Shown here one piece after another: positions 9,909 to 63,917 of a stretch of DNA of 64,000 nucleotides. The notes under the pieces were generated by a model. The model was given only the letters and a program-made list of their open reading frames with translations, did no database searches and was not told where the DNA came from. Where the stretch lies: the IMG/VR virus record IMGVR_UViG_3300044911_003846. The stretch is one strand, 5' to 3'. Position 1 is the first letter of the stretch. The number at the start of each line of letters is the position of its first letter. The stretch is from an uncultured virus (IMG/VR IMGVR_UViG_3300044911_003846) (taxonomy: Duplodnaviria > Heunggongvirae > Uroviricota > Caudoviricetes). A program made the translations under genes and the position numbers.

Positions 9909-10160
9909 ATTATCTAGATATAAGTGATTTTAGATCGAGTAAATACGCTATATTTCTTCCCCCTACCGGCCCTATAAAAACCTCGTTTTTGGGGAAATTT
10001 TCCGGCAGCTATCTGGCCCGCCTGTCACAAAACTTTACATACCAGGAAAAAAAGAAAGGTATGTGACGAGTTGTGACAGAACCCCCGTAACGGTTGGCGA
10101 TGGGCTACAGTGAGGGGACCGAATCGAAAGGTTCGGCGCATCCACCTAGCAAGGAGCAAC

Positions 10161-10454
10161 ATGAGCGCAACCGTGATCGATCCCACCGCGATCCCCGTGG
10201 TCTTCGAGGGCTGGCACCGGGACGGCAGCGACGTGACCCTGTACGCGGTGCAGGTTCTGACGGCCTACCGGATGCTGCCCCTGGCCTCCAAGGGGCTTAA
10301 GTTCCGGGGCGGCGGCCCTGTTCAGTTCTTGAACAAGGCCTTCGGTCGCCGGCAGCCGGCTCACATCTGGGAGGCCCGGCTCAAGCCAGTGGTTGAGCAG
10401 ATCCACCTGGGGCCGCAGCACACTGCTGAGGGTTCCCGCCGCTTCTACGATTGA
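10161..10454 (+). CDS. Early hypothetical protein
   Basis: ATG at 10161 follows the leader repeat (MSATVIDP...). Confidence 0.7.
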   Translation: MSATVIDPTAIPVVFEGWHRDGSDVTLYAVQVLTAYRMLPLASKGLKFRGGGPVQFLNKAFGRRQPAHIWEARLKPVVEQIHLGPQHTAEGSRRFYD

Positions 10455-10504
10455 TCAACCGGGGGCCTTCGGGCCCCTCCACCATCCACCTAGCAAGGAT
10501 CACC

Positions 10505-10657
10505 ATGTACAACATCGTTCGCTTCTACGCTCCCCACGTTGGGCGGCCCAACCGGATCATCCAACGGGGCCTGACCCTGGAGCAAGCCCAGGCCCACTGC
10601 AAGGATCCCCAAACCCGCAAGGAAGGGGAGTGGTTTGACGGTTACACTGAGGCCTGA
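10505..10657 (+). CDS. Early hypothetical protein (GLTLEQAQAHC...WFDGY type)
   Basis: ATG follows the leader repeat; motif common among small phage early proteins. Confidence 0.7.
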   Translation: MYNIVRFYAPHVGRPNRIIQRGLTLEQAQAHCKDPQTRKEGEWFDGYTEA

Positions 10658-10661
10658 TCAA

Positions 10662-10684
10662 CCGGGGGCTCCGGCCCCCTTTTA
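10662..10684 (+). terminator. Rho-independent terminator-like hairpin
   Basis: GGGGGC-TCCG-GCCCCC followed by TTTT. Confidence 0.55.
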
Positions 10685-10830
10685 CAATTTTTTACAAAGT
10701 TGATAGTTGATAGTACTTAATGAAGAAGTGCTACATGTGACGAGTTGTGACAAAACCGCTGAACTGCTGGCCGATGGTCTAGGATTGATGCATCGGGATC
10801 GAACCCGATTCACTTCGCACTTAGCAAGCG

Positions 10831-11505
10831 ATGAACACTGCACTGACGCTTAAGTCTGGCAACGACAAGACTGGTCCCATCCCGGTCAGCACCACGGCCC
10901 GAGGTAGCTGCCCAGAGGGCTGCCCCGCCAAGGCATTCTGCTATGCCGATGCAGGCTACTACACCCGTCTCCACTGGGATGCTGTGACTGCCGGCACCCG
11001 TGGCCTGCCCGAGCTGGACTTCATTGCGGCCGTCCGCAACCTGAAGCCGGGCTCCCGGTTCCGCCACAACGTGGCTGGCGACCTGTGGCACGTTGGCGGA
11101 GCGATCCGTGGCGATCTGCTGCGGATGCTGGCTGAGGCGGCCTCTCACCTGAAGGGCTGGACCTACACCCATCACCTGCGCACCGGGGCCAACCTGGCTG
11201 CCATCCGCTCCGCCATCCGCCGGGGTTTTACGGTCAATCTGAGCACTGAGGTGCGCAGCGAGGCCGCCCGGTTCGCCAAGCGTGGCCTGCCGGTGGTCTG
11301 CATCGTGCCCGAGGGCTCCCCCGCCAAGTTCGAGCACGATGGGGTCACCTTCCGGCAGTGCCCCGCCACGTTCGATGGCTCCCCCACACAATGCAGCAGC
11401 TGCGGGGGTGGCATCCCGTTCTGCGCCAGGGCTGACCGCAACTTCGTGGTCACCTTCCCGGTGCATGGGGGCCGCGCCAAGCTTGCCGCCACCGCCTGCG
11501 GCTGA
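10831..11505 (+). CDS. Cys-rich phage protein (Gp88/DUF7227-like, possible Fe-S binding)
   Basis: SGNDKTGPIP, CPxxCPxxxxCYA, FRHNVAGD, WTYTH, CPA and CxxC...CA motifs. Confidence 0.6.
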   Translation: MNTALTLKSGNDKTGPIPVSTTARGSCPEGCPAKAFCYADAGYYTRLHWDAVTAGTRGLPELDFIAAVRNLKPGSRFRHNVAGDLWHVGGAIRGDLLRMLAEAASHLKGWTYTHHLRTGANLAAIRSAIRRGFTVNLSTEVRSEAARFAKRGLPVVCIVPEGSPAKFEHDGVTFRQCPATFDGSPTQCSSCGGGIPFCARADRNFVVTFPVHGGRAKLAATACG

Positions 11506-11544
11506 TCAACCGGGGCCTTCGGGCCCCTCTACCCTTTTAACACC

Positions 11545-11699: not shown

Positions 11700-11966
11700 A
11701 CAAGTTGATAGTTGATAGTACGCAATATTACGTAATTTTTACGCAAAGTTGATAGTTGATAGTGCGCAACGGGGAGAAATACACAATTTGATGCATTACA
11801 ACTGATTTTTAAGCGATTTGGCGGTTCGCTAGGATGACTGCAGGCGACCAAAGCAGTCGCTTTTATGTGTTTCCCGCGTTTCCTGCGTACCTGTCACACA
11901 GGCAGATACTCTGGACACGGGGGAACGCCCCCTACAACTGGCACAGTGTGACAGTGACCCTGTTTT

Positions 11967-11982: not shown

Positions 11983-12332
11983 TTTTTTATACTTTTTTAA
12001 TAAGTATTGCCCCCTTGTACGCCCCTTGAGACCCATTGCGCCGCAAGGGATCACAGGAGAAACGCCTGATGATTCGTCGAGGGGGCAAAATGTCTCAGGA
12101 TTTTTGCTGTGGAAAACTTTTTCAACATTTCGAGGCTGTCCACCGGTTCATGCCTGTCCATGGCTGGACACGCTCTCCGATTCGGTACAATGGTTTGCAG
12201 CGCATCTCTTGCACTTAATAGGGAACGGGGTGCGGTTATTAACATCTGTGAAGATCCGGCTCAACCGGTCACCGATGGTCTACATTTGATTCCAGGGGGC
12301 AACCCCAGCATCCACTTAGTACGGAGCACACC

Positions 12333-12482
12333 ATGCTTACCTTTCATCTGATCCTCGAGCACTGGCAGACACGCCAGCTAAAGTTCGTGACGATTGAGGA
12401 GTGCGTCGATCTCGACGATTGTCTCGATCACATCCACCAGAATGAGCCTGGCTTTGAGATCATGCAGGTTCGCCCGGCCTGA
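12333..12482 (+). CDS. Early hypothetical protein (49 aa)
   Basis: Manual ORF MLTFHLILEHWQ... after the leader repeat. Confidence 0.65.
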   Translation: MLTFHLILEHWQTRQLKFVTIEECVDLDDCLDHIHQNEPGFEIMQVRPA

Positions 12483-12513
12483 TCCAGCACATCCACCTAG
12501 TACGGAGCACACC

Positions 12514-12684
12514 ATGACCAGATACGATGTTGTCTGCCCTTCGGCAGCCTGGGAGAATACCAGCACCGACGAGGATCAGGTTTCTGATCTTTGCCTGAGC
12601 CTCTCTCAGGACCATGGCTACGTTCAGGTACGCTACAACGGCGTCATCATCGAGGAGTACGTAGACGGAGCGATTCGCTACTGA
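12514..12684 (+). CDS. Early hypothetical protein
   Basis: MTRYDVVCPS... after the leader repeat. Confidence 0.7.
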   Translation: MTRYDVVCPSAAWENTSTDEDQVSDLCLSLSQDHGYVQVRYNGVIIEEYVDGAIRY

Positions 12685-12744
12685 TCTCTGCCCAACCCCG
12701 GCCTGGGCCAGGATGCCGGTTCACCACTTAGTACGGAGCACACC

Positions 12745-12924
12745 ATGACCGACCGCACCATCACCCTGTTCGATCGCATCAACCTTGCCAATTGTGCAGC
12801 GATGCGAGCCGGGAGCCTCTTTCGGGATGAGAATCGCTTCCACGGGGAGTATGAAACTGCCCGGGCCTGGATAAAGTACCGGGTCTACAACAGCCCCAAC
12901 TGCCATTTCGTGGAGATCGACTGA
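12745..12924 (+). CDS. Early hypothetical protein (59 aa)
   Basis: Manual ORF MTDRTITLFDRINLANC... between two ~51-bp direct repeats. Confidence 0.65.
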   Translation: MTDRTITLFDRINLANCAAMRAGSLFRDENRFHGEYETARAWIKYRVYNSPNCHFVEID

Positions 12925-24704: not shown

Positions 24705-25372
24705 ATGGAATTCAGCGAAAACGATGGACTCCTTGTTTCATTCGACGAGGAGTCCAATACCTTCACCTTCGAATGGGATGAAGAAACTCATCCTGAATAC
24801 AGCTTCTTACGGCTTTTAACGCCGGAAGAGCTAATGAACAAACTGTCCGAGCGACTCCAAGACCTTATCGACAATGAAAATGGTTCAAACATTCAAGATC
24901 GGGGATCGAGTGGCGGAGAGGCCGAAATCGACGATCATCCCGAATCTGAGGAGTGAATCCCTCGAAAAAATTGCACGCTATCGCAGCCAACGTTTCGGCG
25001 TTGTGGTCGATGTGTTTGTTAAAAGTACTGTCTCTAGGGGGAATAAACAGGTTAAACAGAAGTTTCTGAAGATCCTCTGGGATGGTATGAAAACACCATC
25101 TGATCATGCACAAATGCGAATCTGCCACGAAAGTGATTTTGAGGCAGTGATGGACAATTACAGTAACTCAATCGGAGCCTGACATGCTGGACAAAGAAGG
25201 TATGATCCGTAACCTGCGCGGAGCGGTTTGTGAGTACCTAGATGAGAACAGATTTGATGAACTCATTGAGGACTTGCAAAATATAGCAACCGAAGAAGAA
25301 GCTGATTTCCTGAAAAAAGCTAAGTTTTACAGAAAACTTAAAAAAGCAGTAGAAGCACTCGCAGACAAATGA
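24705..25372 (+). CDS. Three small hypothetical genes (24705-24956 acidic, 24874-25182, 25184-25372)
   Basis: Co-oriented ORFs. Confidence 0.5.
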
Positions 25373-25689
25373 ACCGCGAATTGTACGGAGTGGCCGTTAG
25401 TAACGGATACGGTGACACTCGTCGAATCTCTCCAGAAGAACGCTGGTTGCGGTTGACGGGCCGACCTCAATCCATAAGAGGTGCCAGCAAATATAGAGGA
25501 GTCTCTATTTGCGACAAGACGCATGAAAAACCCTGGCAGGCAATGTTGGCCTTCAAAGGTAAGCGTTACCGAGCCGGTGTTTTCGCCACAGAGGAAGAAG
25601 CTGCTATCGCCTGGAACAAAATGGCACTTCGGATTATTGGACCTTTAGCCATTAGAAGGTTAAATGTGGTTCCAAATCGTGGTGAGTGA
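25369..25689 (+). CDS. AP2-domain DNA-binding protein
   Basis: SKYRGVS...WQAML.F.GKRY..G.F.TEEEAAIAWN; no HNH domain attached. Confidence 0.8.
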   Translation: MNRELYGVAVSNGYGDTRRISPEERWLRLTGRPQSIRGASKYRGVSICDKTHEKPWQAMLAFKGKRYRAGVFATEEEAAIAWNKMALRIIGPLAIRRLNVVPNRGE

Positions 25690-25726: not shown

Positions 25727-27190
25727 GTGTCGTACATCGGAGTTCAACCGACTGCTGGTCAATATCGGAAGCTGGATAATATTTCTGCAAGCTTTAACGG
25801 TTCGACGACTAGTTTCACAACTAGCGTTGGTGGTACCAACGTAACGGCGGGTACAGCCCAGCAACTGCTGGTGTCTGTTGGAGGTGTGATTCAGGAGCCA
25901 AATTCTGATTACACCGTAAGTACTAATACGATTACGTTCACGACGGCACCAGCATCTGGCCTGGACTTCTTTGCCATTTTAATGGGGGATGCGTTAAACA
26001 CAGTCAGTGCCTCGGATGGGTCTATTACTACGGCAAAATTAGCGGGTAGTCTGTCCGTTGGTTTGGCGGCTGGTACCAACTCCGCACCGTCTCTATATTT
26101 CACCGGAGATTCAAATACCGGCATTTACAGCCCTGGTACCGATCAGGTTGGCATTACAACTGGCGGTTCGGTGCGTCTGACGACTAGCACCACTGCGTTC
26201 ACGGGCACGTTGCCTTGGCAGGGACAGAACGGAACTGCTGCTGCTCCTGCACTGTCCTTCTCGGGTGACCCAAATACAGGTATCTATAACGTCGGTGCCG
26301 ATCAACTTGGCATTAGCACCAACGGGACGTTGCGTTTTGATGTAAGCACTACAGCAACAACTTCAACGCTGCCAGTTGTGCATCCTCTTGGCGCAGTTGG
26401 AACGCCGTCGATCACATTTACTGGCGACCTAAACACCGGCATTTATAGCCCTGCAGCCGACACTATTGCGTTTGTTGAAGGCGGCGTAGAAGCCATGAGG
26501 ATTGCCAACGGCGGTGAAGTCCTTGTTGGAACCACAAGCACAGCAAGTGGCGGTTCAGGTGGCAACTTCGCCTTCATTGCCCAGTGCTTCACAAACGAAG
26601 AAAATCGTCCTATTGCTGCCTTCAGGAGGGCTGATCTGATTTCGGCGCAATTTTTCGGAAGCAATGGAGGCGATGGCAATGCTGCTAACTGCATTATGCG
26701 GATACGTGGTCATTCCTCAGGTAACCGCAGTATCAATGCTGGCGGTTCGGTCAATGCCACTGGCGCTGACTATGCCGAATACATGACCAAGGCTGGTAAT
26801 TTTGAAATCGCCAAAGGGGATGTATGTGGGGTGACCGCAGACGGGAAGCTGACTAACGTTTTTACTGCTGCTATTGGTTTTGTTGTTAAATCAACAGACC
26901 CCTCTTATGTCGGCAATGATGTTTGGGGAATAGACATTGAAAATGATGAACAACGGGAAGCTGCACGTGAAAAAGTAGACCGCATTGCCTTCGCTGGTCA
27001 GGTGCCCGTCAACGTGACCGGTGCAACCCCCGGCCAATACATCGTCCCCGTCTCTACTGAAGACGGTGGTATCACTGGTATCGCCAAGGACGAAGGCGAT
27101 CTGACCTTGGCTGAGTACATGCGAGCCGTGGGCAAGGTCATTGCCACCGAAGATGATGGACGCGCCCGCATCATCGTCAAAGTCGCGTAG
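25727..27190 (+). CDS. Tail fibre/spike protein 1, C-terminal peptidase-G2/IMC-like chaperone domain
   Basis: FNGSTTSF N-terminus, three PS(L/I)xFxGDxNTGIY repeats, ADYAEY...RIAFAGQVPV C-terminus. Confidence 0.8.
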   Translation: MSYIGVQPTAGQYRKLDNISASFNGSTTSFTTSVGGTNVTAGTAQQLLVSVGGVIQEPNSDYTVSTNTITFTTAPASGLDFFAILMGDALNTVSASDGSITTAKLAGSLSVGLAAGTNSAPSLYFTGDSNTGIYSPGTDQVGITTGGSVRLTTSTTAFTGTLPWQGQNGTAAAPALSFSGDPNTGIYNVGADQLGISTNGTLRFDVSTTATTSTLPVVHPLGAVGTPSITFTGDLNTGIYSPAADTIAFVEGGVEAMRIANGGEVLVGTTSTASGGSGGNFAFIAQCFTNEENRPIAAFRRADLISAQFFGSNGGDGNAANCIMRIRGHSSGNRSINAGGSVNATGADYAEYMTKAGNFEIAKGDVCGVTADGKLTNVFTAAIGFVVKSTDPSYVGNDVWGIDIENDEQREAAREKVDRIAFAGQVPVNVTGATPGQYIVPVSTEDGGITGIAKDEGDLTLAEYMRAVGKVIATEDDGRARIIVKVA

Positions 27191-27462
27191 TCCTACTCAC
27201 TACAACCTCTCAAATCCCTGCTAACGTAATTGGGCCTAGGTCAACCACCATGAGGCCCAATTACCGCGTAATTCTGCTGGAATGTATTGAGGCAGGTGTC
27301 CGTCGTGGATACCGTCGTGCATACAAACACACAGAATCTCCTCAAGAAGAGGCAATCTTCGAATCCATCGAAGATTGCATCATGAGTGAGATTGTAGAAC
27401 GGTTCTTTTTTGACTTTGAATAGGTAAAACCTGAATATACTTGTAGGGATTGCAACACAATA

Positions 27463-27821: not shown

Positions 27822-28169
27822 ATGCTCTGCCGGAGCTGCTCCAGCAAAAACACGCGTGTAACCTGCACCGAAAAGCATGCGACGTATACCAAGCGGTATT
27901 GCCGCTGCCTCGACTGTGGTCACAGATTTAGAACCGTCGAAAAATATGAATTCCCTAAGCCAGGTCCACCGAAGAACTACAGCCGTCCAGGTCGAATTGC
28001 TCGGGGCAGTGATCATGGCCGCTCAATTCTTACCGAAGCTAATGTTCTGGAAATGCGCCAACTTTTTAGGAGTGGTTGGACGCTACAAGAATTAAAAGAT
28101 AAGTTTGGGATGAGCTCATCGTATATTTCAAAAATCGTCAACTATAAACAATGGAAGCACGTAGCGTAG
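27822..28169 (+). CDS. NrdR-like zinc ribbon fused to homing-endonuclease-type HTH
   Basis: CxxC...TRV...R.CxxCGHRF.T.E N-terminus; RGSDH..S.LTE...ISKIVNYKQWKHV C-terminus. Confidence 0.7.
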   Translation: MLCRSCSSKNTRVTCTEKHATYTKRYCRCLDCGHRFRTVEKYEFPKPGPPKNYSRPGRIARGSDHGRSILTEANVLEMRQLFRSGWTLQELKDKFGMSSSYISKIVNYKQWKHVA

Positions 28170-33452: not shown

Positions 33453-34757
33453 TTAGCGGCTTATTTCCTCCCAATCTAACGAAGCGTAGATATCGGCTCC
33501 GTTAGTGTCCGCTGCTGCTGCTAACGTCAACTCAAAGGGTGTGGAGGTAAAAGCATTTCTTTCAAGCTGGAACGAGAATAAAGCCTCTTTCAAGATGTCA
33601 ACCGGCGTTGATCCTTGGTTGGAGCCATTAAGAAAACCAGATGCCAATATCCGTCCACCCGTAAAACTTGTGCCAGTAATGTTATATTCAACGGAGGAAT
33701 CAGCTGCAGCACTTGTCCATGTGCCACCAGTAGTCGTTCCAGACGCTACAACCCGCCAAGAATAGTTAGCGTTGTTGGTAATACCTAAAATAGACAAGGC
33801 TGTCAAAATAATAATTGCGTCTAAACGATTCGGTGACGCTTTTAGCCGAATAGATGCCACGGGATAATAAGTAATTGCTGTAGTTAAATCGCGTGGACTA
33901 CCAATAGGCGTTTCAATTGACTGCTGAGCACCACGAAGTTCATACCCACCTTCGGAAAGAACAGACGAACAAACTTGCTTCAAGGTACTGTTACTGGCTG
34001 TTGTTCCAGTATTTTCAATTTCATACCTAAGGGGAAGCGAAGCAGTACTGATATAAGTAGAAGAAATTAAGTTAGCGTGATGAAAAACATGACACGGAAT
34101 AAATTTCCCATCAATCACGAATCCCATGCGGACAGAACCAAGCCCAAGCCACTCAACATCCATCCAGAGAATTTGGGCTTTGGTAATATTTAAAACAATC
34201 TCAGATGGACCGGTTCCATCCATCTTGTCGATATTCCAGTTTGCTTGAGCGACTCGTGTTTCTGAAAAACTACCAGAAGAAATACTGCGCTCAACAAATG
34301 ATAAGGTTGAATTATTCAGCTCAATGTACATACCATTGTCGGCACCAAAATAACCGACACGTTGTCGTAATCCGGTCTTGGCCGGTGCCATGACAAAGGT
34401 GTTAAGAACTAATAAAGATTTTCCAGGTTGATAAGAAAATACCTTGGTTGTTTCACGGTAAACCAGGGAACCGGATGTCGTTGTAACAGCAAGATCAACT
34501 AAGCCCTCACTGACTTGGAACGTAACAGTGCCACCAGTAGCGGTACTACTGTTCCACAGACCATTGTCCCTGTAACGGTGGCTGGAATCAAAAAGAGTAA
34601 ATGGATTCGAGACACGTAGACGACCAAATGCATCAGTAGCAGGACTCGGCTCCCCTGTTATCGGAGCGGTGACGGATACATTAAGAACCTGGTCGTCGGG
34701 ATTTAAAACCTTAACAACTTCGTAACGGTTCTTATCGCGCTCTAGAACAGTTGCCAC
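33453..34757 (-). CDS. Putative virion structural protein (DAFGRLRVS type)
   Basis: DAFGRLRVSNPFTLFDS, YQPGKS and LPLRYEI motifs; beta-rich. Confidence 0.65.
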   Translation of the reverse strand: MATVLERDKNRYEVVKVLNPDDQVLNVSVTAPITGEPSPATDAFGRLRVSNPFTLFDSSHRYRDNGLWNSSTATGGTVTFQVSEGLVDLAVTTTSGSLVYRETTKVFSYQPGKSLLVLNTFVMAPAKTGLRQRVGYFGADNGMYIELNNSTLSFVERSISSGSFSETRVAQANWNIDKMDGTGPSEIVLNITKAQILWMDVEWLGLGSVRMGFVIDGKFIPCHVFHHANLISSTYISTASLPLRYEIENTGTTASNSTLKQVCSSVLSEGGYELRGAQQSIETPIGSPRDLTTAITYYPVASIRLKASPNRLDAIIILTALSILGITNNANYSWRVVASGTTTGGTWTSAAADSSVEYNITGTSFTGGRILASGFLNGSNQGSTPVDILKEALFSFQLERNAFTSTPFELTLAAAADTNGADIYASLDWEEISR

Positions 34758-34807
34758 AATCTAAAATTTGCTATGCTTGGTCTAAGGCTAGCACTGAATC
34801 AATTTTT

Positions 34808-35539
34808 ATGGATAAACAGCGCTTCCATTACGTTTATTACAGCTATGAAAGCTGGGGCAGAGGATACATTGGTGTCCGGTCCTGCTACGTGAAGCCTGAA
34901 AGCGACAAAAAATACCTTGGAAGTTTTAAAGATAAAAGCTTCAAGCCAACAGAAAAAATTATATTGTGCGAATTCGAAACAAGAGAAGAGGCGGAGCAGG
35001 CCGAAATAAAGTTGCACCAATTTTTCCAAGTAGCGGCCAATCCCGACTTTGCAAATAGAATAAATAGTTCAACCGAGGGGTTCAATCGCCTAGGCGCAAA
35101 AAATAGTCTGCATGTGAGGCAAAAAGTATCAGAATCAAACAAAAATAATAAGTATTGTGTTGGGAGGAAGTTGTCCAATCAAACCAAACAGTTAATCTCA
35201 GAAAACAATAAGGGTAAGCATGACGGGGAAAAGAATCCCATGTTTGGAAAAACGCACACAGATGAAGTAAAAGATTTTCTACGAAAGAACACTAGAAAGT
35301 GGATCGAAGAAAAGGGTCATCCAATGAAGGGAAAGCGGCATACAGAAGAGAGCCGAAGAAAAATATCAGAACAGCAAAAAAAGATTAAAGTAAAACTGCA
35401 AAACATAGAGACTGGTGAAATATATGAATTTTCTTCTCAACTGGAGGCCGCTAGGGCTTTGGGGATTTATCAGGGCTCAGTGTCAAGCTTGTGTAAGGGT
35501 AAATTAAAGACCACCGGGGGATGGAAGCTCGCTGTGTAA
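34808..35539 (+). mobile_element. Free-standing GIY-YIG homing endonuclease with NUMOD3 repeats and C-terminal HTH
   Basis: YVYYSYE..GRGYIG.R, Y.GS, NPMFGKTHTDE, HTEESRRKISE, F.SQLEAARALG; AT-rich. Confidence 0.85.
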
Positions 35540-40914: not shown

Positions 40915-41838
40915 ATGCCCCCTGCAGTGCTTGAAAAAGGTGCAAAAATTCTGGCGGGAGAAGAACTAGGGAGCAAAATTCATACAAAGTATGCTGCCGA
41001 CAAAGATTATCGGCAGTTCGTGGATTACAGATCTGAAGGCCCTACCAGGATTGAAAAGTACGGTCATCGGCACTACCGTACACCGTTCGGAGATCTTCCG
41101 TCGACCACGTCCATTCTCGGGGAAACATCGGGAAATAAAGCATCTTTGGAACGTTGGGCTGCTAAAAATCCCGGCGGTCGTGAAGCTGCAGCAGCACGTG
41201 GCACGCGGCTTCATAAAATGATGGAAGATTTTTTGACCGGTGAAAATAAAAATCCGATAATTGATGACCAAGAAATTGCCGAGTTCTGGGAGGGTCTTCC
41301 AGAGAATTTAAGCAAGCTTGGTCGCGTAATCTGGGCGGAAAACCCCCTAGGTGGAGCATACCCTTGGACCATAGGAGAAGATGGTATATCTAGGGTTTGG
41401 CATCCAGGGGTACATGAAACGGAGACATGGGGTTTTGTAGGCGCTCCGGACATTGTGGCCGAATATAAAGGCAAAATTGTACTTGGCGACCTGAAGAGCT
41501 CAACTGGCCGCTATTTCGCAAAACACCCAGGCCCCGATTGCCCTAAAAATGAATACGGCATGCGTCGCGCAGGTTTTTGGAAATATACCAAGTGCATGTT
41601 GCAGCTAGGATCATATTCTTTGGCCCTGGAATATACGTGCAATTTAAAGCCTGATATATTTATGATTTTTTGTCAAACCCGAGAACATTCTCAAGTTTTT
41701 GCAGTACAAGGTGGGACGATTAAAAAATATCAAGAAAAGTGGCTTCAAGCGGTGGAAAAATATTATACGGAATGCCTACCAAAACTTAAAGAAGGTTGCT
41801 TAGGTTTGGAAACCGAGGGGGAAAAAGAAAGCCAGTGA
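40915..41838 (+). CDS. PD-(D/E)xK exonuclease
   Basis: PSTTSIL, RGT.LH, G.PDIVA...LGDLKSS, QLGSY. Confidence 0.8.
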   Translation: MPPAVLEKGAKILAGEELGSKIHTKYAADKDYRQFVDYRSEGPTRIEKYGHRHYRTPFGDLPSTTSILGETSGNKASLERWAAKNPGGREAAAARGTRLHKMMEDFLTGENKNPIIDDQEIAEFWEGLPENLSKLGRVIWAENPLGGAYPWTIGEDGISRVWHPGVHETETWGFVGAPDIVAEYKGKIVLGDLKSSTGRYFAKHPGPDCPKNEYGMRRAGFWKYTKCMLQLGSYSLALEYTCNLKPDIFMIFCQTREHSQVFAVQGGTIKKYQEKWLQAVEKYYTECLPKLKEGCLGLETEGEKESQ

Positions 41839-42734
41839 ATCACTATATTTACTATAGCTATGAAGAAAATGGTAGGGGTTATATCGGCTCGAGATCATGT
41901 GCATGTTCCCCAGAAGATGACGATTACTTCGGATCGTATAAGGATAAAACATTTAAGCCTAATAAAAAAATAATCCTCGCTACATGTGAGTCAAAAGAAC
42001 AAAGATATCAAATGGAATATTTTTATCAGAAGCTGCATAATGTAGTTGAAAACCCTCACTTTGCAAATAGAGCATTTCAGACAACGACGGGTTTTAGTAG
42101 GCTCGGGTTGAAAAATTCCGAAGAAAGTAGGAAAAAAATGAGTCAATCTAGACGAGGGCGGCCGAGCGGAATGCTGGGTAAAAAACACAGCAAGGAAACT
42201 AAAAAACGTATAGCTGAGTCAACGAGAGGAGTTCCATGCCCATCCAGAGGTCGTAAATGGACACAAGAACGTAAGCAGAAGCACTCGGAAAACTTAAAGG
42301 GCAAAAAAGGTGTAGTACATACAGAGGCAACAAAACAGATTATTCGGGAAAAGCTATCTACGGTAACATGTTTGAAAAATATAGTCACGGGTGAATTTAA
42401 AATATTTCCATCGCAAACAGCTGCGGCCAAATTTATAGGAGTACCACAAGGTGCAATTTCAAGTTTAATTACTGGTAGAGCAAACAGGATAAAAGAATGG
42501 GCAGCTGCTGATCAAAACGGGGATTTGATCGTAAGAGATGTAACAATGGATAGAAAAACAAAGCCAATAAAATTATTGAACGTTGAAACGGGTGAAATCC
42601 GGGAATTTAAATCGGTAAAAGAAGCTGCCCAAGCGTTAAATGTATGGGATTCCACAATCTCTAAAATCATTCGAGGACGGCAACTGGTTGGACATGTTGT
42701 TGCCCCAGAGTCAGACCCAACGGACTCGAACTAA
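41835..42734 (+). mobile_element. Second free-standing GIY-YIG homing endonuclease (NUMOD3 plus two HTH modules)
   Basis: HYIYYSYEENGRGYIGSR, paralogous to 34808; GTG start overlaps the exonuclease stop; AT-rich. Confidence 0.85.
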
Positions 42735-45837: not shown

Positions 45838-45923
45838 TGCTCTATTTGATTTACACCAAAGTTAGCATATTTACTGCCCAACACAATTACGGTCAACCGT
45901 TCAAACTGGATTAGTGAGTAGGA

Positions 45924-47420
45924 CTACGACGCCTTGAGGGAGGCAACTTCAGCTTTCAGAGCCTGCAGTTCAGCAATCGTTTCTTGCAGAGCAGCGGTCA
46001 GCAGCGGCACCAGCTTCGACTGATCAATGCCTTGGTAGACGGGGCTACCATCAGCATCTATTTGATCTTTGAACCCCCCTGCCGCCTCTGGAACGACTTG
46101 TTGAACTTCATGAGCCAGGAAACCATCGACATCCGGCGCTTTTTTGGCATCTACAATCCAGCTAAAGCGAACAGGGTTGAGCTGGGATAAACGCTCAATG
46201 GCGTTTTGAAAAGGCGTTATGTTTTCTTTTAACCTGTAATCAGACGTTGTGTCATAAGCGATTGAAGTTGAGGATGCTCGCCTTACTTGACCTACCCTGG
46301 TACCAGTAGAGCTGCCAAAATCAATGTAAATGGCGTTATTGCTGTTATCCGTTGTGCTTAAAGCGAGACCACTTGCACCATTGAAAAAGTCTCCATGAAT
46401 ACGAATCCTTCCGCTTGAAGACATGATGGCGCCAGAAGTGCCTATACCTATAACACCACCGTCTGGTAACGAACAAATACCATTACTCGCAATCCTCATC
46501 CGCTCCGTCGGGCTGCTCGCTCCATCGGCGGTAGTGGAGAACACTAGGCGGCCTGGATAATCATTCGTTCCAGCGTTTGCATCTGCCTCGCAACCGATTA
46601 AACCAAACGTATTTCCAGCATTGTCATTCCAGCTAATGTTTCCAATTCCTTCTCCAGAGGTGATGTTGCCGCCAGCAGCAGCTTCTCCTCTTTGAATTGA
46701 AAAGTTACCGCCAGCTGTTGCATCAGCAGGCTGACCTTGAACTACGAGTTTTGCATATTGACCAAAGCCGCTACTAGGACTCGTAGACGTGCCAACTAAC
46801 AGGCGTCCCGACGTGTCGATTCGTGCTCTTTCGTTGCTATTTGTAATGAACTTAAGCGGATGATTTGTGCTGGTACCTAAATCCATCCGACCATCGCCAA
46901 AAGCAGCAACAAATCCGGTTACAGACGCATCCGAGTTACGAAGATAGACAACGCCACCATTGCCAGTTCCGCTACCTCGAATATCTAAAGCCGTGCCGTA
47001 GCCCAATCCATCAGCAGGACTAGTAGTGCCAATCCCTACGTTGCCTCCGACAGGATTAAGAATTAAGGATTGGGTGGCGTTGCTTGAAGTGTTTTGTGCT
47101 TGAATCCACGGTGAGCCACCGGTGGAGCCAATACCAAACATTAAACGATTATTGGTATCCGTAGCTGCTTCAACTGTGATTCCAGCATTGTTTAGCGTTG
47201 TGGAGCCAGTAGCGCTGGCGTTTGCAAAGTTGACTCTGTTAACCGTTAACCGAGATCCAGGGCTACTAGTCCCCAGACCTACCCTGTTATTGGCAGCATC
47301 AACGTAGAGCGTATTGCTGTCTAAATTAATATTTCCACTTGCATCAATCTGCAACGCCGTTGCGGGTGCAGAAGGGTTGAGATTTAAACCAGAAACTAAT
47401 TGTGCCTTCGTCTGAGACAT
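45924..47420 (-). CDS. Tail fibre protein 2 with C-terminal peptidase S74 intramolecular chaperone
   Basis: NRVGLGTSSP, GNVGIGTTSP, GRLVFSTTADG; SDYRLKENI...GFLAHEVQ...IDQSKLVPLL. Confidence 0.88.
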   Translation of the reverse strand: MSQTKAQLVSGLNLNPSAPATALQIDASGNINLDSNTLYVDAANNRVGLGTSSPGSRLTVNRVNFANASATGSTTLNNAGITVEAATDTNNRLMFGIGSTGGSPWIQAQNTSSNATQSLILNPVGGNVGIGTTSPADGLGYGTALDIRGSGTGNGGVVYLRNSDASVTGFVAAFGDGRMDLGTSTNHPLKFITNSNERARIDTSGRLLVGTSTSPSSGFGQYAKLVVQGQPADATAGGNFSIQRGEAAAGGNITSGEGIGNISWNDNAGNTFGLIGCEADANAGTNDYPGRLVFSTTADGASSPTERMRIASNGICSLPDGGVIGIGTSGAIMSSSGRIRIHGDFFNGASGLALSTTDNSNNAIYIDFGSSTGTRVGQVRRASSTSIAYDTTSDYRLKENITPFQNAIERLSQLNPVRFSWIVDAKKAPDVDGFLAHEVQQVVPEAAGGFKDQIDADGSPVYQGIDQSKLVPLLTAALQETIAELQALKAEVASLKAS

Positions 47421-49263: not shown

Positions 49264-49544
49264 TGAGGGGATTGAAGCTAAATCGGGATTAAGGGTTGAG
49301 ATCCGTTGCGAGAGCTGGGTTGTGAATGGACAACCAATCAAGACCGGTGGTAGCCGCTAGACATTAATCCCTTGTAAGTTTGGGTTAGTAATTGGTAGTA
49401 CATAAAATATACACCCATTTAGTAACCCAAACTCATAAGAAAGTTATTAAAAGGCGGGTAAACCGGTTGTGATTGGTCGTACATCAATTCCCTTGACAGC
49501 ACTTGGATGTTAGCGTAATCTTCTAAAACCGTTCGATCCCCTCA
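49264..49544. repeat. Long imperfect inverted repeat (~280 bp)
   Basis: Paired segments include TGAGGGGATTGAA/TTCGATCCCCTCA, ACCAATCA/TGATTGGT, ACCGGT/ACCGGT, CCGC/GCGG and AGTTTGGGTTA/TAACCCAAACT; loop near 49400-49410. Confidence 0.85.
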
Positions 49545-50692
49545 TGGACATCGAAACCCTCTTCGCTGATCTGAGCCTCCTTCCGTCAGACCAGATTGCT
49601 TTTGTCAGAGCGTTTCAAGTTGGTCTCAAGCTGTATGGAGAGGACAAGTGTTGGCAGCTGGACCGGACTAGCCACATCGCTTTCGATGGCTTCAATACGG
49701 CCCATCCAGGCAGCCTCTTCTATCGCGGTGTCGATGCCAGACCGTTGATCTTGGCTCTGTCTGGGCGCTTCCAGGGGGATGGAGAGGTGGCTGTCCGTCG
49801 ATCCATCTGTCAGTCCCCTCACTGCCTTAACCCATTGCACTACTTCTGGGGGACCAGGAGCCAGGTGATGTTGGAGAAGCAGAAGGCGCGGACAAAGAAC
49901 AGCCTGTCTGTGGATTTGATCGAGAAGTTGCGGCGGGGGCGGCAGGAAGGGAAGCGGGTATTGGATCTATCGCGTCAATACAAGGTGCCGTATCACACGG
50001 CGAGGCGAATCTGTGCGGGTGAGACTTATGAGAATCTAAATGAGATTAAAGAGGAGGTGCCGGCCGAGCTGATGTGGGAGCTCACTCATGAAATTTGCAA
50101 GCAATTGACAGCTCGCTACCCTGAAGAATCAAAGGAATTCAACCTGGCAATTCAAGTGTCCGAATCCCTCGAATGTCCCTGGCACCGCAAAGGCCTCCCC
50201 GGTCACAAAGGCAACTTTGGACTCATGGGAGAATGTCTGGACTGCATGGAAGAGATTAAAAACGGTCGCTGCTCTGTCGATGTCACCAACTTCGACATGA
50301 ATTGGTACTGGAACGTCAAGCGATTTTGGGAACAGGTCGATATTCGTGGTGAAGACGAGTGCTGGCCTTGGCTCGGCGCCAGTCGGAAGGACGGTACCGA
50401 ATCGACCGCTTACTTCCCAAGTCCATTTCACTCAGGAAAAGTTCATTCCGCATCCAGGGTGGCCTTTTGGTTAAGTCGTGGCTATACCGGGAAGTACAGG
50501 GTTTTTGCTCGCCCAGAGTGCGAAAAGTTTTGTTGTAACCCAAAACATTTACACATTCGTGAGATTAAGGATCTAGCTGAACCCGCTAGTATGGGGGAAA
50601 TAAAGCTGACCCATGGAAACATCTTCGAGTCCTATCGAAAAAATCTGTCAGAAAAACAGTCAAGTCCTCCCAACAAATTACCATCTTCCTGA
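49544..50692 (+). CDS. Protein with two His-Me/HNH zinc-binding-loop domains and a central HTH
   Basis: CW...CQSPHCLNPLH; LSRQYKVPYHTARRIC; FWEQVD...ECWPWLG...ASRVAFWL...CEKFCCNPKHL. Confidence 0.75.
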   Translation: MDIETLFADLSLLPSDQIAFVRAFQVGLKLYGEDKCWQLDRTSHIAFDGFNTAHPGSLFYRGVDARPLILALSGRFQGDGEVAVRRSICQSPHCLNPLHYFWGTRSQVMLEKQKARTKNSLSVDLIEKLRRGRQEGKRVLDLSRQYKVPYHTARRICAGETYENLNEIKEEVPAELMWELTHEICKQLTARYPEESKEFNLAIQVSESLECPWHRKGLPGHKGNFGLMGECLDCMEEIKNGRCSVDVTNFDMNWYWNVKRFWEQVDIRGEDECWPWLGASRKDGTESTAYFPSPFHSGKVHSASRVAFWLSRGYTGKYRVFARPECEKFCCNPKHLHIREIKDLAEPASMGEIKLTHGNIFESYRKNLSEKQSSPPNKLPSS

Positions 50693-55064: not shown

Positions 55065-55835
55065 TCAAGTATCTATCCCCGGACGCGGCGGAGATCCTAG
55101 ACCGGTGGGTTTCTCATTCCAAAGACGGAAAAAGTGCTTCAGAGCATGTCCAGACGGATCCCAGCTCAGTATCTTTCCTTCCAGATACTCAATCGCCTTG
55201 ATCTGATTATGGACTCCCGTGTAAGTCTCGGGTAGGTTCAACAGGCAAACTTTGAGTTTGCAATTGTGTTCTGTAAAGGTAGGGATCTCCTTGTCTGGAG
55301 CTAAAAACGTATCCAGCTCTGCTCGCCTTCGGTTGATAATCGATTCACCACCAGAACGCCACATTCCATTGATGTATGGGCTCCACTCACGGATGATGTC
55401 TTTTTTGCTGGCGTGAGAGTTGATCAGCCTCAGCAGACGTGATTCCTTGAAGCCCGTCACCCCTAGGTTGTGGGCAAATGACAGGATGGCCGCCTTTCGG
55501 TTCTTGTTTAGAGGCACAAAAATATACGGTTCGATCTGTTTGGTAAATTCTTTTAGATCCTCGATTAGCTGCTCTTCAATCTGCTTTTGAGTCGCGACTT
55601 CGTGGTATCCAACCCAGTGCTTGTTTATTTTCTTGCTACCGTATCCAATGCGCCAGATGTCCTCTCCGTATTCTTTGTATGAACCAAAACGCCCCATACC
55701 TAAATTGGTACGGGGCTGCGTGTGGCGTTTAATTAGTTCAACTCCTTTCGGAGTGAGCAGCGGGTACTCACTCCAATCTTCAGTATTCTTAAGGGACGAC
55801 GACGCTGCCAGTGTAGGAAACTTCAGAATAGCCAT
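55065..55835 (-). CDS. GH24 lysozyme-like protein lacking the catalytic Glu
   Basis: G.ELIK, W.IGYG, VPLN.N...AILSF..NLG...F..S.LL...N, RRRAE. Confidence 0.7.
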   Translation of the reverse strand: MAILKFPTLAASSSLKNTEDWSEYPLLTPKGVELIKRHTQPRTNLGMGRFGSYKEYGEDIWRIGYGSKKINKHWVGYHEVATQKQIEEQLIEDLKEFTKQIEPYIFVPLNKNRKAAILSFAHNLGVTGFKESRLLRLINSHASKKDIIREWSPYINGMWRSGGESIINRRRAELDTFLAPDKEIPTFTEHNCKLKVCLLNLPETYTGVHNQIKAIEYLEGKILSWDPSGHALKHFFRLWNEKPTGLGSPPRPGIDT

Positions 55836-58668: not shown

Positions 58669-58848
58669 TCAAACGATAATCTCTCGATTCATCGCTTTAG
58701 TTTTAATATCAGTTGCCTCTTCTCCTTGCGCCAAGCGCTGGAAACCTGAAGGGATTCGCGCCCGCTGAAGCTCCTGAATGGCTTTTTCTACGTAGCCATC
58801 CAGAAACTCTTTGCCGTTAGGTCGCGACCCAGCCGATGTAGAAATCAT
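58669..58848 (-). CDS. Small hypothetical protein (59 aa)
   Basis: Manual ORF MISTSAGSRPNGKEFLDGYVEKAI...; fills the gap between neighbours. Confidence 0.45.
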   Translation of the reverse strand: MISTSAGSRPNGKEFLDGYVEKAIQELQRARIPSGFQRLAQGEEATDIKTKAMNREIIV

Positions 58849-60364: not shown

Positions 60365-61612
60365 TCACTTTAAGCGTTTAAAGTCGTACCAGCACCAGCC
60401 AGAGCCGCCCCCACCAACAAAGAATCGAGGGTTTAAGTTCTTGAAGCTGTAGCGAACATTGCGACCGGCGACGGCACCGGTTGAAGCCCAACCACCGTTG
60501 ACCAGGTCCTGTTCACCGTAGGGGTCTTGGACTAGCCAATAATCCCGGCCATAACCAGTAATAACCACAAAGTGGCCGCCACCAGAAGGGTCAGAAACAG
60601 TTCCATGATGAAGAATGCCGGCAACAACAGGGAGGCCCGAGTCAATTTGTTTTTTAACGTCATCCGAGTCTGCAGTTTGAGTAAACTTAGCGGATACACC
60701 TAACTCTGCCAAGGCTTTAAAATGAGGGTTGCGATAAATGGTGTCTCCGTACTTATTAACGATCTTCAAGTAGTCAGTATCGTCGTTAATACCGGGCGTA
60801 TCTAAGTACTTCAGACACATTGCAATACTGCTCGTCTGACACTGGCGCCAGCCTTCAGGGCCGTTATCCTTTTGATGAAAGTATGGGAAGTTACGGAGAT
60901 AACGGAGATCACCGTCAATCGCGTAAGGATGGATCGTTGTCTTAGTGACAAGTCCGTCCCAGTGATCGTCGTAGATCCACCACTTACCAAGCCCGAAGCC
61001 CATTTCTACGTAGCTATGCTTGTCCTTACGATCAATAACAAAGCAATTTCGAATTGTTCTGCCTTTGTAAATATTGGCTTTTTCGTCACGACCTAACTCG
61101 ACGGAAGGAACGAGTCGTTTTTTGAGCCAGGTATTAAATTTAGAAGTTATATCAATTAATCCAACCTTTACTTTCGGGGCTTCGCTGCAAAATAATTCAA
61201 CCTCTGCGGAACGGCGGCGGCTCAAGCCCTCAAGGACTTTTCCGTCACCTTTATTCCACCTTGGCAGCTCTTCGGCAGCGACAATATTAGGGTTTTCTCC
61301 ATTATTAAGACGTTTAACTAACGTTGAACCCTTAAAAGCCTGGGTTCCGACGTTAAAACAGAAGGAGACAAGTGCATCAAATTGATTTTGATTTAAATCA
61401 ATGGTGACGTAATTTAATACTGCTTGCTCGAATTTAATGAGATCTTGCTTGAGAAGTGCGTCGGCTTCTTTCTCGGTGATTTTTGTTCCAGCAAGCACGT
61501 TTCCGGTGTGACCGTAGCCAATGGTAAGTACACCGACAGGACAGAGGTAGCTGGTGAGGCTTAGTCCCTCGAAAGATTTAATTAATTTGATGCCAGTGGG
61601 CGAAATTTTCAC
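60365..61612 (-). CDS. Endolysin: GH24 lysozyme fused to a C39-like cysteine peptidase
   Basis: IKSFEG...TIGYGH, NQNQFDALVSF.FN.G, GL.RRR.AE; C-terminal QCQTSSIAM...GHFVVITGY...VQDPYG. Confidence 0.9.
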   Translation of the reverse strand: MKISPTGIKLIKSFEGLSLTSYLCPVGVLTIGYGHTGNVLAGTKITEKEADALLKQDLIKFEQAVLNYVTIDLNQNQFDALVSFCFNVGTQAFKGSTLVKRLNNGENPNIVAAEELPRWNKGDGKVLEGLSRRRSAEVELFCSEAPKVKVGLIDITSKFNTWLKKRLVPSVELGRDEKANIYKGRTIRNCFVIDRKDKHSYVEMGFGLGKWWIYDDHWDGLVTKTTIHPYAIDGDLRYLRNFPYFHQKDNGPEGWRQCQTSSIAMCLKYLDTPGINDDTDYLKIVNKYGDTIYRNPHFKALAELGVSAKFTQTADSDDVKKQIDSGLPVVAGILHHGTVSDPSGGGHFVVITGYGRDYWLVQDPYGEQDLVNGGWASTGAVAGRNVRYSFKNLNPRFFVGGGGSGWCWYDFKRLK

Positions 61613-61646
61613 AATACTGATACCTGCTTACACTAAAGTAGCAGAT

Positions 61647-61901
61647 CTATTCAGCGTTGCGAGATAAACTGATTAACGTCGTTAAGACACCCATCATTAC
61701 AGCAATAGTTCGCGAATCGACGTCGGTGCAGCCCATTGGAGCCGGATCTATTTTGTCGCCTTCTGGAGTGCCTACGTACCTTGCGTACCAAGGCCAGATT
61801 GTAGGCAGCACGTAAAATCTACAGGCTGCCCACTGGAAAGTTGATACAACCATGATGGCTGCAGCGGTCCCGACAATTGATCGCCAGAGCCAGTTGGTCA
61901 T
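61647..61901 (-). CDS. Small two-TM protein, possible holin
   Basis: Two hydrophobic segments; directly upstream of the endolysin. Confidence 0.4.
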   Translation of the reverse strand: MTNWLWRSIVGTAAAIMVVSTFQWAACRFYVLPTIWPWYARYVGTPEGDKIDPAPMGCTDVDSRTIAVMMGVLTTLISLSRNAE

Positions 61902-61920
61902 CGATGGTTAGTGAGTAGGA

Positions 61921-62399
61921 CTAATCAAGCCCGAGCGCAGCCTTGATCTCGTCAGGGCTTTGTGCTGCATCAATGTCGCTTTGGATGGCCGCGTATTTAT
62001 CCCGGATTTCTTGGCGCTTGGCCTCCGCCTCAGCGGCATCTCCACCAGGAATCTGTTTCATGATCACCTCGTCGTAAGGCTTGAACTCCTCTGCCCGCAT
62101 GGCGCGACGCTTGTCGTGGCCAATGGCTTTAGCTTTATCCAGGTTGATGGTAATCATTGGGCTGCCTCCTTGGCGGCGAAGTAAGCGTCGGCACCGATGC
62201 CGTAACCGTCAGGGTTGCTGAAGTCAGCCTCCCAAGCGTTACGGAAGGTGCGGTCAGATGGCACACTGTCAGCAGGAATAAACAGGTAAGGGACGCCAGC
62301 AGGGACATCTTTTTGAGCAACTTCTTCGATGCTCAGCTCACCCGTGGGAATGACGACAGAGATGCCGCCGGTTTCGTTTGGATAGATGATTTTTGTCAT
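61921..62399 (-). CDS. Two tail-fibre assembly/accessory proteins (62154-62399, 61921-62157)
   Basis: A.KDVPAG.PY...DRTFRNAW and I.INLDKAK.IGH..RR..R..EF motifs; follow fibre gene 3. Confidence 0.7.
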
Positions 62400-62408
62400 G
62401 GAGACACC

Positions 62409-63917
62409 TCAACGGAAGACGGAGACGGATATGTTTGCAATATCCGCAGCGGTGCTAATTGCAGTAACCTGAAACGTGCCAACTTCTACTTGCGTGGTGG
62501 TACTCGGCTGACAAGATACAAGAGCAAATGCAACACCGGTATTGATTCCCGTGGCAGCGACTGAATAATTAGTATCCGGCATAGCATTTGAAAGATTAAC
62601 TCCGTATGCTCCAACGGCAGCATCCGTAATGCTACTTACATTGCCACTAGCCCGTACAGCAGGTGTTCCTGTTCCGTTAAAATTAACCCAAGCTCTTGCA
62701 AAGAAAGCAGGGTATAAAGTGGCGTTACCAGGAACAACGGCAGACAGTTGACCATTGCTCGCAATGCGTAGACGCTCTGTTGGGCTGCTTGCACCATCGG
62801 CGGTAGTGGAGAACACTAACCTGCCCGGCATGTCGTTAGCACCGGGTGTGCCGTCTACTACCGCTACAATATTTGCTGCAGAAACAAGATCAGTACCATC
62901 CGCACCCTGGAAGTGAATGCTTCCGATCGTATCTCCATCTGCAACAACAGTAACAGCTCCGTTAGTTGTGCCACGAGAGCGCGCTAAAACTAAATTTGTA
63001 TTTGCTCCAGTTGCATTACAAGTGACCGAAAGCATTGATGTTGAAAAATCTGTACCTTCGACTTGAAAGCGTGGCGCAAATGTTGTGGCATTAAAAAAAT
63101 CGCTACGCGCAGAAGACGTGCCAACTAAAAAACGACCACTTGAATCACACCTGAATCTTTCGCTACCACTGTTAGCAAAGACGAGCTGAGTTGCATCTAG
63201 TTGAAGTGCCTCTCGGGAACCTGCACCCGTTAAAGATCGAAGAATGTTTGCAGTGCCACCTACCGGGTCAAATTGGAAATAGGCGGTTCCATCCGATACA
63301 GCTAGCTTGCCACCAGGCGAAGTAGTGCCAATCCCTACGTTGCCTGAACTATTAACAAACAACCGCCCCTGGCTATTAGTTGAGATAGCTACATTATTTG
63401 CCGAAGGAAGATAAACCCCGTTAGTGGGGACAGTACTGCTGGTGGGAATAAAACTCGGCGCCGTTAAAGAAGTAGTTGCTAATATTGCAGCCTGAACCGA
63501 ATTACTTGAGAACGAAACAACACCAGATCCGCTGCGATAGAATCCAGTGTCCGTATCCTGGTCAAAAGTAATGCTGGGAACTGCAGCACTACCATCTGGA
63601 TATGTAGCACCTGCATTGACGTAATCAGCGCCAGCAAGAATTACACCAAAAAAATCAGCACCAGTTGCTGGAGCCGAACTAAAAACAATATTGCCGCCAC
63701 TAAGACGAAAACCTTCAGCACCGGTATCGTCAGGTCGTTGAAGAACACCTGCAACGGAAATAAGACACTGTTGCGAGTTTAACGGCAGCGGTACAGGAGC
63801 TGCACCACGAACAAGGAGAGCGAAGGATGTGGTAGAACCATTGAAGGACCCACTGATGTCGTCAATGTTGACATAAGTGGGATAGGCAACCTTTAGGTCA
63901 TTACCAAGATAGGCCAC
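62409..63917 (-). CDS. Tail fibre protein 3
   Basis: DDISGSFNGSTTSF N-terminus paralogous to fibre 1; GNVGIGTTSP, GRLVFSTTADG; C-terminal RAWVNFNG...NVSSITD domain. Confidence 0.85.
   Translation of the reverse strand: MAYLGNDLKVAYPTYVNIDDISGSFNGSTTSFALLVRGAAPVPLPLNSQQCLISVAGVLQRPDDTGAEGFRLSGGNIVFSSAPATGADFFGVILAGADYVNAGATYPDGSAAVPSITFDQDTDTGFYRSGSGVVSFSSNSVQAAILATTSLTAPSFIPTSSTVPTNGVYLPSANNVAISTNSQGRLFVNSSGNVGIGTTSPGGKLAVSDGTAYFQFDPVGGTANILRSLTGAGSREALQLDATQLVFANSGSERFRCDSSGRFLVGTSSARSDFFNATTFAPRFQVEGTDFSTSMLSVTCNATGANTNLVLARSRGTTNGAVTVVADGDTIGSIHFQGADGTDLVSAANIVAVVDGTPGANDMPGRLVFSTTADGASSPTERLRIASNGQLSAVVPGNATLYPAFFARAWVNFNGTGTPAVRASGNVSSITDAAVGAYGVNLSNAMPDTNYSVAATGINTGVAFALVSCQPSTTTQVEVGTFQVTAISTAADIANISVSVFR

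Follow-up and report, generated by a model that had tools for sequence, protein, structure and literature searches.

A Conserved Non-Coding 15-mer as the Probable Right-Hand Joint of Exchangeable Tail-Fibre Cassettes in Synechococcus Phages

A 15-mer, TAGTCCTACTCACTA (referred to below as the word), begins with a stop codon at three dispersed fibre loci of an uncultured virus and recurs behind fibre genes in other viral genomes. We consider it probable, from the sequence comparisons reported here, that the word is a conserved non-coding linker at which recombination joins the right-hand side of exchangeable fibre cassettes in lake and estuary phages of Synechococcus. The host range of cyanophages is set by their fibre tips, and these phages control the picocyanobacteria of lakes and estuaries. 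The word is an exact right-hand seam common to podoviruses and S-EIV1-type phages as well as to two cultured phages of one host. It provides a handle for mapping natural fibre swaps in metagenomes, and a handle on the minimal homology for module exchange and on function versus hitch-hiking as the cause of its conservation. The TAG-N9-CTA boxes inside fibre genes may have a non-coding counterpart in it.

The Window and Its Fibre Loci

The window is the whole stretch of DNA that was analysed, 64,000 nucleotides of IMG/VR record IMGVR_UViG_3300044911_003846. Its large terminase and the corresponding protein of Synechococcus phage S-EIVl share 66% identity, with matches in two records only. The window fibre end matches 27 phage records, all 27 of them of Synechococcus phages, and window DNA is present in public lake-water metagenome runs. 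The terminase match, the Synechococcus-only fibre matches and the lake-water runs together show that the window is a Synechococcus phage from fresh water and belongs to the S-EIV1 lineage. Its genes include those for terminase, DNA polymerase, a primase-polymerase, ThyX and two lysozymes, the three dispersed fibre loci and at least nine HNH or homing-endonuclease genes. A PHROGs scan of 80 window ORFs gave no integrase, invertase or recombinase, and a PF00940 RNA polymerase was likewise absent from the window ORFs scanned. The tRNA scan of the window returned tRNA-Leu and tRNA-Pro only, both away from the 15-mer sites, and no suppressor tRNA.

Tail-fibre gene 1 (25727..27190, + strand, 487 aa) matches phrog_18673 at its N-terminus (E 1.1e-26) and phrog_34132. 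Its tip has no assigned Pfam family. The peptidase-G2-like label that the initial annotation gave to this gene could not be upheld: no Pfam family was matched at E values up to 10 except for a stray SH3 match, and a PDB sequence search was without match. Tail-fibre gene 2 (45924..47420, − strand, 498 aa) matches phrog_18345 (E 3.7e-69) and carries the expected S74 domain, a C-terminal Peptidase_S74 chaperone domain (PF13884, residues 393-446, E 3.9e-12). Tail-fibre gene 3 (62409..63917, − strand, 502 aa) matches phrog_9942 (E 7.7e-50) and phrog_18345. It is followed by two small accessory genes of 81 and 78 aa (61921..62399, − strand) that make up one cassette together with the 15-mer. The gene ending at the word, which had been described as a small accessory gene, indeed belongs to such a family (phrog_20196, E 3.2e-7). 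The block downstream (60365..61901, − strand) codes for an 84-aa membrane protein and an endolysin composed of a lysozyme plus a C39-like peptidase. Short conserved boxes with the pattern TAG-N9-CTA lie inside the fibre genes: one coding LVFSTT in gene 2 (46532..46546, − strand) and one coding VGIGTT in gene 3 (63323..63337, − strand), the latter gene having also an internal LVFSTT box (62804..62818, − strand).

The Three Copies of the Word

The window has three exact copies of the word where 0.02 are expected by chance, and none of 100 shuffles gave three or more. No further site was found in the window at up to two mismatches. At copy 1 (27188..27202, + strand) the TAG that opens the word is the stop codon of the fibre ORF 25727-27190; at copy 2 (45912..45926, − strand) it ends the S74-type fibre ORF 45924-47420; and at copy 3 (61909..61923, − strand) it closes the accessory ORF 61921-62157 of 78 aa. 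Exact matches and ORF ends at all three sites bear out the earlier observation of three dispersed 15-mers at the stops of unrelated genes. The word, whose core is AGTCCTACTCACTA, is non-coding apart from its stop codon. The bases immediately 5′ and 3′ of it are different in each of the three copies, as had been noticed before, so that neither longer homology nor simple duplication accounts for the identity. A partial fourth copy, the 11-mer GTCCTACTCAC at 56789-56799 (− strand), lies antisense within ORF 56738-57532 and is probably a chance occurrence.

Placement of the Word in Other Viruses

An exact-match scan of IMG/VR returned at least 120 loci, a raw count that carries no evidence because the reversed control word yields 115 IMG/VR matches by itself; only the context of the matches counts. 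Loci of this set were chosen by the exact word, and events that destroy the word are invisible in it. Gene-end placement was scored on the 60 nt upstream, as an open frame whose stop ends between positions −7 and +3 of the word. Of 114 contexts scored for each word, 111 had such a placement with the real word and 0 with the reversed control. At least 120 viral contigs of IMG/VR have the word directly after fibre genes. The upstream genes were tallied over 123 contexts (the 120 IMG/VR loci listed and the three window copies). An S74-type fibre precedes the word in 71 contexts, and fibres with nine further types of C-terminal tip account for another 34. Eight contexts have a small ORF upstream, four run into the end of the contig, and the last six are ambiguous or likely chance occurrences. 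Thirteen genes were taken to represent the non-S74 upstream types; ten of them match the fibre-shaft families phrog_18345/9942, the other three being small ORFs. The association with fibre-gene ends that the initial annotation had put forward as open to refutation by searching other genomes was thus found there.

The TAG of the word itself is the stop codon in about 75 contexts; otherwise the true stop ends 0-7 nt ahead of the word, which is therefore a unit placed directly behind the fibre locus rather than a stop codon per se. It is always on the coding strand of the fibre. Information content is high at word positions 2-6, 10-11 and 13-15 and drops directly outside positions 1-15. Neighbouring genes were clustered for 66 loci of at least 3 kb, taking genes within 2.5 kb of the word and the 14 commonest clusters. 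The commonest order is fibre (65 of 66 loci), word, DUF7936 (52 of 66) and lysozyme (34 of 66). A sample unbiased by the word was assembled from the 80 best relatives of the S74 domain, picked regardless of its presence. The exact word occurs in three of these 80, and a version with up to four mismatches is present at the stop in 30 of 80, against 2 of 5000 in the null.

The carriers belong to very different phages, with one to three copies of the word per genome record. Two records of 80-86 kb rated 100% complete (G002 and G003) have the word and no PF00940 polymerase. This family gave no match in G002, G003 and G004-G006; the search itself works, since it matches G007 and G008 at E 1e-67 or better. 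The latter two are complete genomes of 45-46 kb that encode a T7-type RNA polymerase and have one copy of the word each. A further complete genome, of 40 kb (G009), has the word and lacks a T7-type RNA polymerase. Between the window and the T7-like podovirus record G008, the accessory proteins are 75.9% (81 aa) and 92.3% (78 aa) identical in amino acid sequence, while the DNA polymerases are just 33% identical. Their DNA alignment (82.6% over 489 bp, 62390 to 61908) ends 1 nt past the word.

Two cultured phages of Synechococcus CB0101 carry the word as well. The annotated fibre CDS of S-CBP1 (Autographiviridae) ends with the TAG of the word, and in S-CBP4 the second fibre gene ends with TAA, followed by six bases and then by the exact word. 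Degraded or partial versions are found in S-RIP1, S-CBP42 and S-EIVl. The phylogeny of the fibre genes is described as incongruent in the available part of the S-CBP genome paper (PMC4646655), and neither the word nor the term “promoter” occurs in that portion of its text. Literature matches to the string CCTACTCACTA are, judging by their titles, unrelated primers.

Mosaic Flanks and Seams at the Word

Flanks of 200 nt on either side of the word were compared among 89 distinct contexts (3916 pairs). Twenty-eight pairs are alike over at least 100 nt upstream and unlike downstream; their similarity stops at the edge of the word in 23 pairs, one base beyond it in four and two bases beyond it in one. 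Twenty-two pairs are alike downstream only, with similarity stopping 0 nt (18 pairs) or 1-7 nt (4) beyond the word edge. Similarity reaches 29-61 nt beyond the word in a few additional pairs, and only one pair of the 3916 is alike on both sides. No pair alike on both sides was found among the 38 motif-bearing loci of the unbiased sample. Breakpoints thus lie at both edges of a short sequence common to unrelated neighbours, which is what characterizes a linker of modular evolution. The possibility that the word is embedded in longer homology produced by simple duplication was looked for specifically; similarity stops at the word edges.

Each window copy has relatives that are joined differently at the word. 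Copy 1 and locus L103 are 26% identical upstream and 97.2% identical over 250 nt downstream. The corresponding values are 23% upstream and 85.6% (ungapped) downstream for copy 2 and L050, and 26% upstream and 98.8% downstream for copy 3 and L018. Copy 3 displays the reverse pattern with L011, L058 and L059 (86-89% upstream, 23-26% downstream). Lake-metagenome contigs of run X12 part from the window exactly at 45926 and 61923, and the loose ends of these diverging contigs are reverse complements of two other IMG/VR fibre ends. The proposal of a fixed right-hand junction for exchangeable C-terminal fibre cassettes is supported in this way at the level of populations and evolution, relatives differing upstream and matching downstream at the word.

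The left edge of the replaced segment can be located in two of the relatives. The window and L018 share 99.4% identity from 64000 to 63321, that is, to two bases past the VGIGTT box of fibre gene 3, the left crossover of the cassette. L018 is divergent between this box and the word except for two short patches, and 97.5% identical over 2515 bp from the first base of the word (61923) onwards. L050 is 100% identical to the window over the 57 bp from 46546 to 46490, which begin with the LVFSTT box of fibre gene 2, the left edge of the replaced tip. It then has another fibre tip from 46490 to the word, behind which the match resumes at 95.8% (BLAST) over 2519 bp, starting exactly at 45926. Read from their sequences, L018 and L050 are cassette replacements by double crossover, from an internal box to the word.

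Sister Forms and Internal Boxes

The ends of the word, TAGT and ACTA, form an inverted repeat with 4-bp arms around 7 bp, and these ends are better conserved than the centre. Sister forms with kept ends (TAGTC...CACTA) and an altered centre exist (TAGTCACCTTCACTA, TAGTCCCCTTCACTA and TAGTCAACGCCACTA). The first of them, TAGTCACCTTCACTA, is found at gene ends in 97 of 116 contexts and has a wider range of upstream genes than the word, with the same downstream modules. The pattern TAGT-N7-ACTA occurs five times in the window (0.31 expected), namely in the three 15-mer copies and the two LVFSTT boxes. The more relaxed TAG-N9-CTA occurs 16 times (6.8 expected), ten of these occurrences being in or at fibre genes. 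Among 53 DNA versions of the LVFSTT box, 39 use CTA or TTA for Leu and 38 use ACT for Thr, a bias that is not clean evidence for a lock at the DNA level because adjacent codons are similarly conserved. The TAG start and the CTA end of all boxes give stop codons on both strands.

The terminal 15-mer may be the same kind of joint as the internal boxes, read in another frame. A bolder version, to which we give little credence, takes the terminal 15-mer and the internal boxes as one signal class, a portable “standard joint” that an enzyme of phage or host, for instance an HNH nuclease, would actively recognise. One frame of such a joint would code for a strand linking fibre modules and another would close the gene. 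Fibre cassettes would then be inserted by cyanophages into the genomes of other families, in a manner resembling the handling of gene cassettes by integrons.

Proposed Explanation

We suggest that the exchange takes place when one cell is co-infected by related or unrelated phages. The 15-mer would supply a short homology on the right-hand side, and the left-hand homology would come from the TAG-N9-CTA boxes coding LVFSTT or VGIGTT, or from the N-terminal anchor, within or ahead of the fibre gene. The fibre tip, or the fibre with its accessory genes, would be swapped as one unit. The crossover inside the word could proceed by homology or microhomology through general recombination functions of phage or host, with no dedicated enzyme. 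The word would persist by hitch-hiking with selected fibre swaps, because each successful exchange is expected to regenerate it. The genomes display the products of recombination, from which we infer the act of crossing over, the enzymes involved and the reason for conservation. No sign of a programmed switch within one genome was seen, and no joints between the three window copies are present among the joints listed.

Some features fit a passive linker poorly. A stretch of 15 bp is short by the standards of classical homologous recombination, the near-perfect conservation in different phage families is hard to account for, and the variants with fixed ends and a varying centre resemble a recognised site. 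Since these fixed-end variants fit a recognised site too, they leave room for a cis-acting function or a dedicated enzyme.

Alternative Explanations

The word could be primarily a cis-acting signal, either a 3′-UTR element or a binding site for a host or phage protein, with recombination as a by-product because the word is the only sequence shared there. We regard this as unlikely, even if such a signal would be in keeping with a non-coding word strictly conserved on unrelated backbones, with variants that retain TAGTC and CACTA while the centre changes, with the excess of the TAGT-N7-ACTA inverted repeat in the window and with a constant position 0-7 nt after the stop, on the strand that codes for the fibre. 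Beyond the fibre module itself, however, no regulator is common to the 80-kb and the T7-like phages. Moreover, what follows the word varies: among 94 distinct downstream contexts there are 14 with a terminator-like hairpin, 23 with a start codon within 25 nt and 57 others. No Rfam family was matched at the 15-mer sites, and the word contains no stable hairpin. A function as general terminator, ribosome-binding or start signal was rejected because of the heterogeneity of these downstream contexts. An intrinsic terminator was discarded as well, there being no G+C-rich hairpin with a T run in the word; the hairpins are separate modules in a minority of loci. A general promoter does not agree with an element present in few copies, only behind fibre loci, and also in the absence of a polymerase. 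There is a resemblance to one particular promoter class: 12 of 15 positions are identical, in register, to the T7 promoter from −17 to −3, including the core CTCACTA. That the word is a promoter of a T7-type single-subunit RNA polymerase, active or as a podovirus relic, is nevertheless extremely improbable. Some carriers are T7-like phages with their own polymerase (G007, G008) and S-CBP1 belongs to the Autographiviridae, but PF00940 is absent from the two 80-86 kb records rated 100% complete and from the window ORFs scanned. The polymerase-bearing G007 and G008 have a single copy and no related repeated word, the positions after the word are variable with no conserved initiation region, and a terminator often follows directly. 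The T7-promoter resemblance is now regarded as a coincidence, at most a relic.

A dedicated nuclease or site-specific recombinase that targets the word, and possibly the TAG-N9-CTA boxes within the fibre genes as well, might instead drive the exchange. The site-like architecture of conserved ends and variable centre, the HNH and homing-endonuclease genes of the window and the enrichment of TAG-N9-CTA in or at fibre genes are compatible with such an enzyme. We nonetheless hold it to be very unlikely: at the 66 loci, the 14 commonest clusters of genes lying up to 2.5 kb from the word include neither a recombinase nor a nuclease, the 80 window ORFs scanned include no integrase or invertase, a site behind a stop codon is unable alone to alter a protein, and the joints listed comprise none between the three window copies. 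A diversity-generating retroelement was rejected: the PHROGs scan of 80 window ORFs turned up no reverse transcriptase, and the three upstream tips, being unrelated, do not form a pair of template and variable repeat. A linker used by general recombination continues to be the reading that we prefer.

Comparison with Known Systems

The promoters of the T7 group are present in many copies before gene clusters and have a conserved initiation region, unlike the 15-mer with its one to three copies and variable downstream sequence. The word also differs from the sfx sites of shufflons, the gix and hix sites of invertases and the attC sites of integrons, in that no cognate recombinase is encoded by the window ORFs scanned or by the 14 commonest neighbour clusters of the 66 loci. 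Podoviruses of the SP6/K1-5/K1E type have a tail-protein cassette with conserved flanking intergenic DNA. The arrangement described here is similar in that a host-range gene lies beside conserved non-coding DNA that permits cassette replacement. The flanks of the SP6/K1-5/K1E cassette, however, contain the promoter of the phage and more extended homology among members of a single group, whereas a bare 15-mer joins podoviruses and S-EIV1-type phages. In T-even phages the host-range parts of the distal fibre and adhesin genes are exchanged at the His boxes of gp37 and the glycine-rich motifs of gp38. Exchange at short conserved stretches is shared with this system, and the internal LVFSTT and VGIGTT boxes appear to act alike. 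The T-even motifs are coding and partly kept by protein constraint, while the 15-mer is non-coding bar its stop and closes the cassette on the 3′ side.

PeSL cassettes of T4-type phages, to go by the portion of the report available (Arbiol et al. 2010, PMC2839356), combine a strong sigma-70-like promoter with a terminator stem-loop, are regulatory and lie in hyperplastic regions rich in small non-essential genes. Like PeSLs, the word is a short conserved intergenic element repeated at gene boundaries (111 of 114 contexts at gene ends). In the same part of that report, close relatives differ by insertions, deletions and replacements that have PeSL copies at their borders and are ascribed to recombination between copies; replacements are bounded by the 15-mer here. 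The word differs in being only 15 bp long and in holding neither promoter nor hairpin, a hairpin following it in 14 of 94 downstream contexts. It also differs in being present one to three times per genome, specifically behind fibre loci, and in crossing phage families. The fibre-cassette joint is a variation on the known principle represented by PeSL cassettes and T-even fibre boxes and not a new kind of system; its surprising part is that a non-coding 15-mer should be so strictly conserved in different phage families.

DNA flanking the 15-mer behind tail-fibre genes

Downstream of copy 1 of the conserved 15-mer, the plus strand has an inverted repeat of 12 bp (27224-27262; GTAATTGGGCCT ... 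AGGCCCAATTAC) whose loop contains the ATG of a 57-aa ORF (27250-27423), an arrangement that could hide this start codon. Copy 2 is followed on the minus strand by a putative sigma-70-like promoter read from the sequence (45881-45909; TTGACC and TAAATA spaced by 17 nt), and comparable TTGACA-17-TACCAT sites are found 3' of the 15-mer in three IMG/VR loci (L048, L115 and L117).

One small insert can be bracketed by the 15-mer and its sister form TAGTCACCTTCACTA, as found in the complete-rated record G003 (59478-59613; locus L036/L371) and in loci L013, L040, L063 and L076. The insert is a short Cys-rich ORF in some of these loci, while in others it has two to four units of CTTGCTCGGTA in tandem and then GTGAGTAG, a sequence complementary to the centre of the 15-mer. 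A gene coding a DUF7936 (phrog_7802) protein of ~105 amino acids and unknown function lies downstream of the 15-mer in 52 of 66 loci (e.g., L002, 2579-2890); DUF7936/phrog_7802 was not found in the window.

TAG-N9-CTA boxes

Boxes of 15 bp with the same outline as the 15-mer (TAG-N9-CTA) are also present inside two fibre genes of the window, four in gene 2 (46532-46546, 46784-46798, 47024-47038, 47267-47281) and three in gene 3 (62804-62818, 63323-63337, 63377-63391). These seven boxes encode strands of the LVFSTT, LVGTST, VGIGTT or VGLGTS type. The whole window has 16 TAG-N9-CTA occurrences versus 6.8 expected. Among the listed joints, where lake-metagenome contigs diverge from the window, a box edge lies at most 3 nt from a joint end in 10 of 15.

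tRNA, endonuclease and lysozyme genes

Adjoining genes for tRNA-Leu (anticodon TAA) and tRNA-Pro (TGG) are found at 59299-59459 (plus strand), flanked by HNH genes. The tRNA-Leu reads TTA which, together with CTA, is the prevailing Leu codon at the fibre LVFSTT box. The window codes at least nine HNH or homing endonucleases (among them 25369-25689, 27822-28169, 34751-35539, 41796-42734, 49544-50692, 58817-59227 and 59460-59831) and two lysozyme-type proteins (55065-55835, 60365-61612).

Short three-copy repeats

Three short sequences are each present in three copies. Those of TGATCAACCGGGG (10452-10464, 10655-10667, 11503-11515) all open at the TGA stop codon of an ORF (10110-10454, 10451-10657 and 10831-11505, respectively). 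AAGTTGATAGTTGATAGT (10697-10714, 11702-11719 and 11746-11763, plus strand) may be an iteron or operator. The 19-mer TAGTACGGAGCACACCATG (12317-12335, 12498-12516 and 12729-12747, plus strand) starts with TAG, contains GGAG and ends with ATG; from this composition, it looks like a fixed stop/ribosome-site/start junction joining small early genes.
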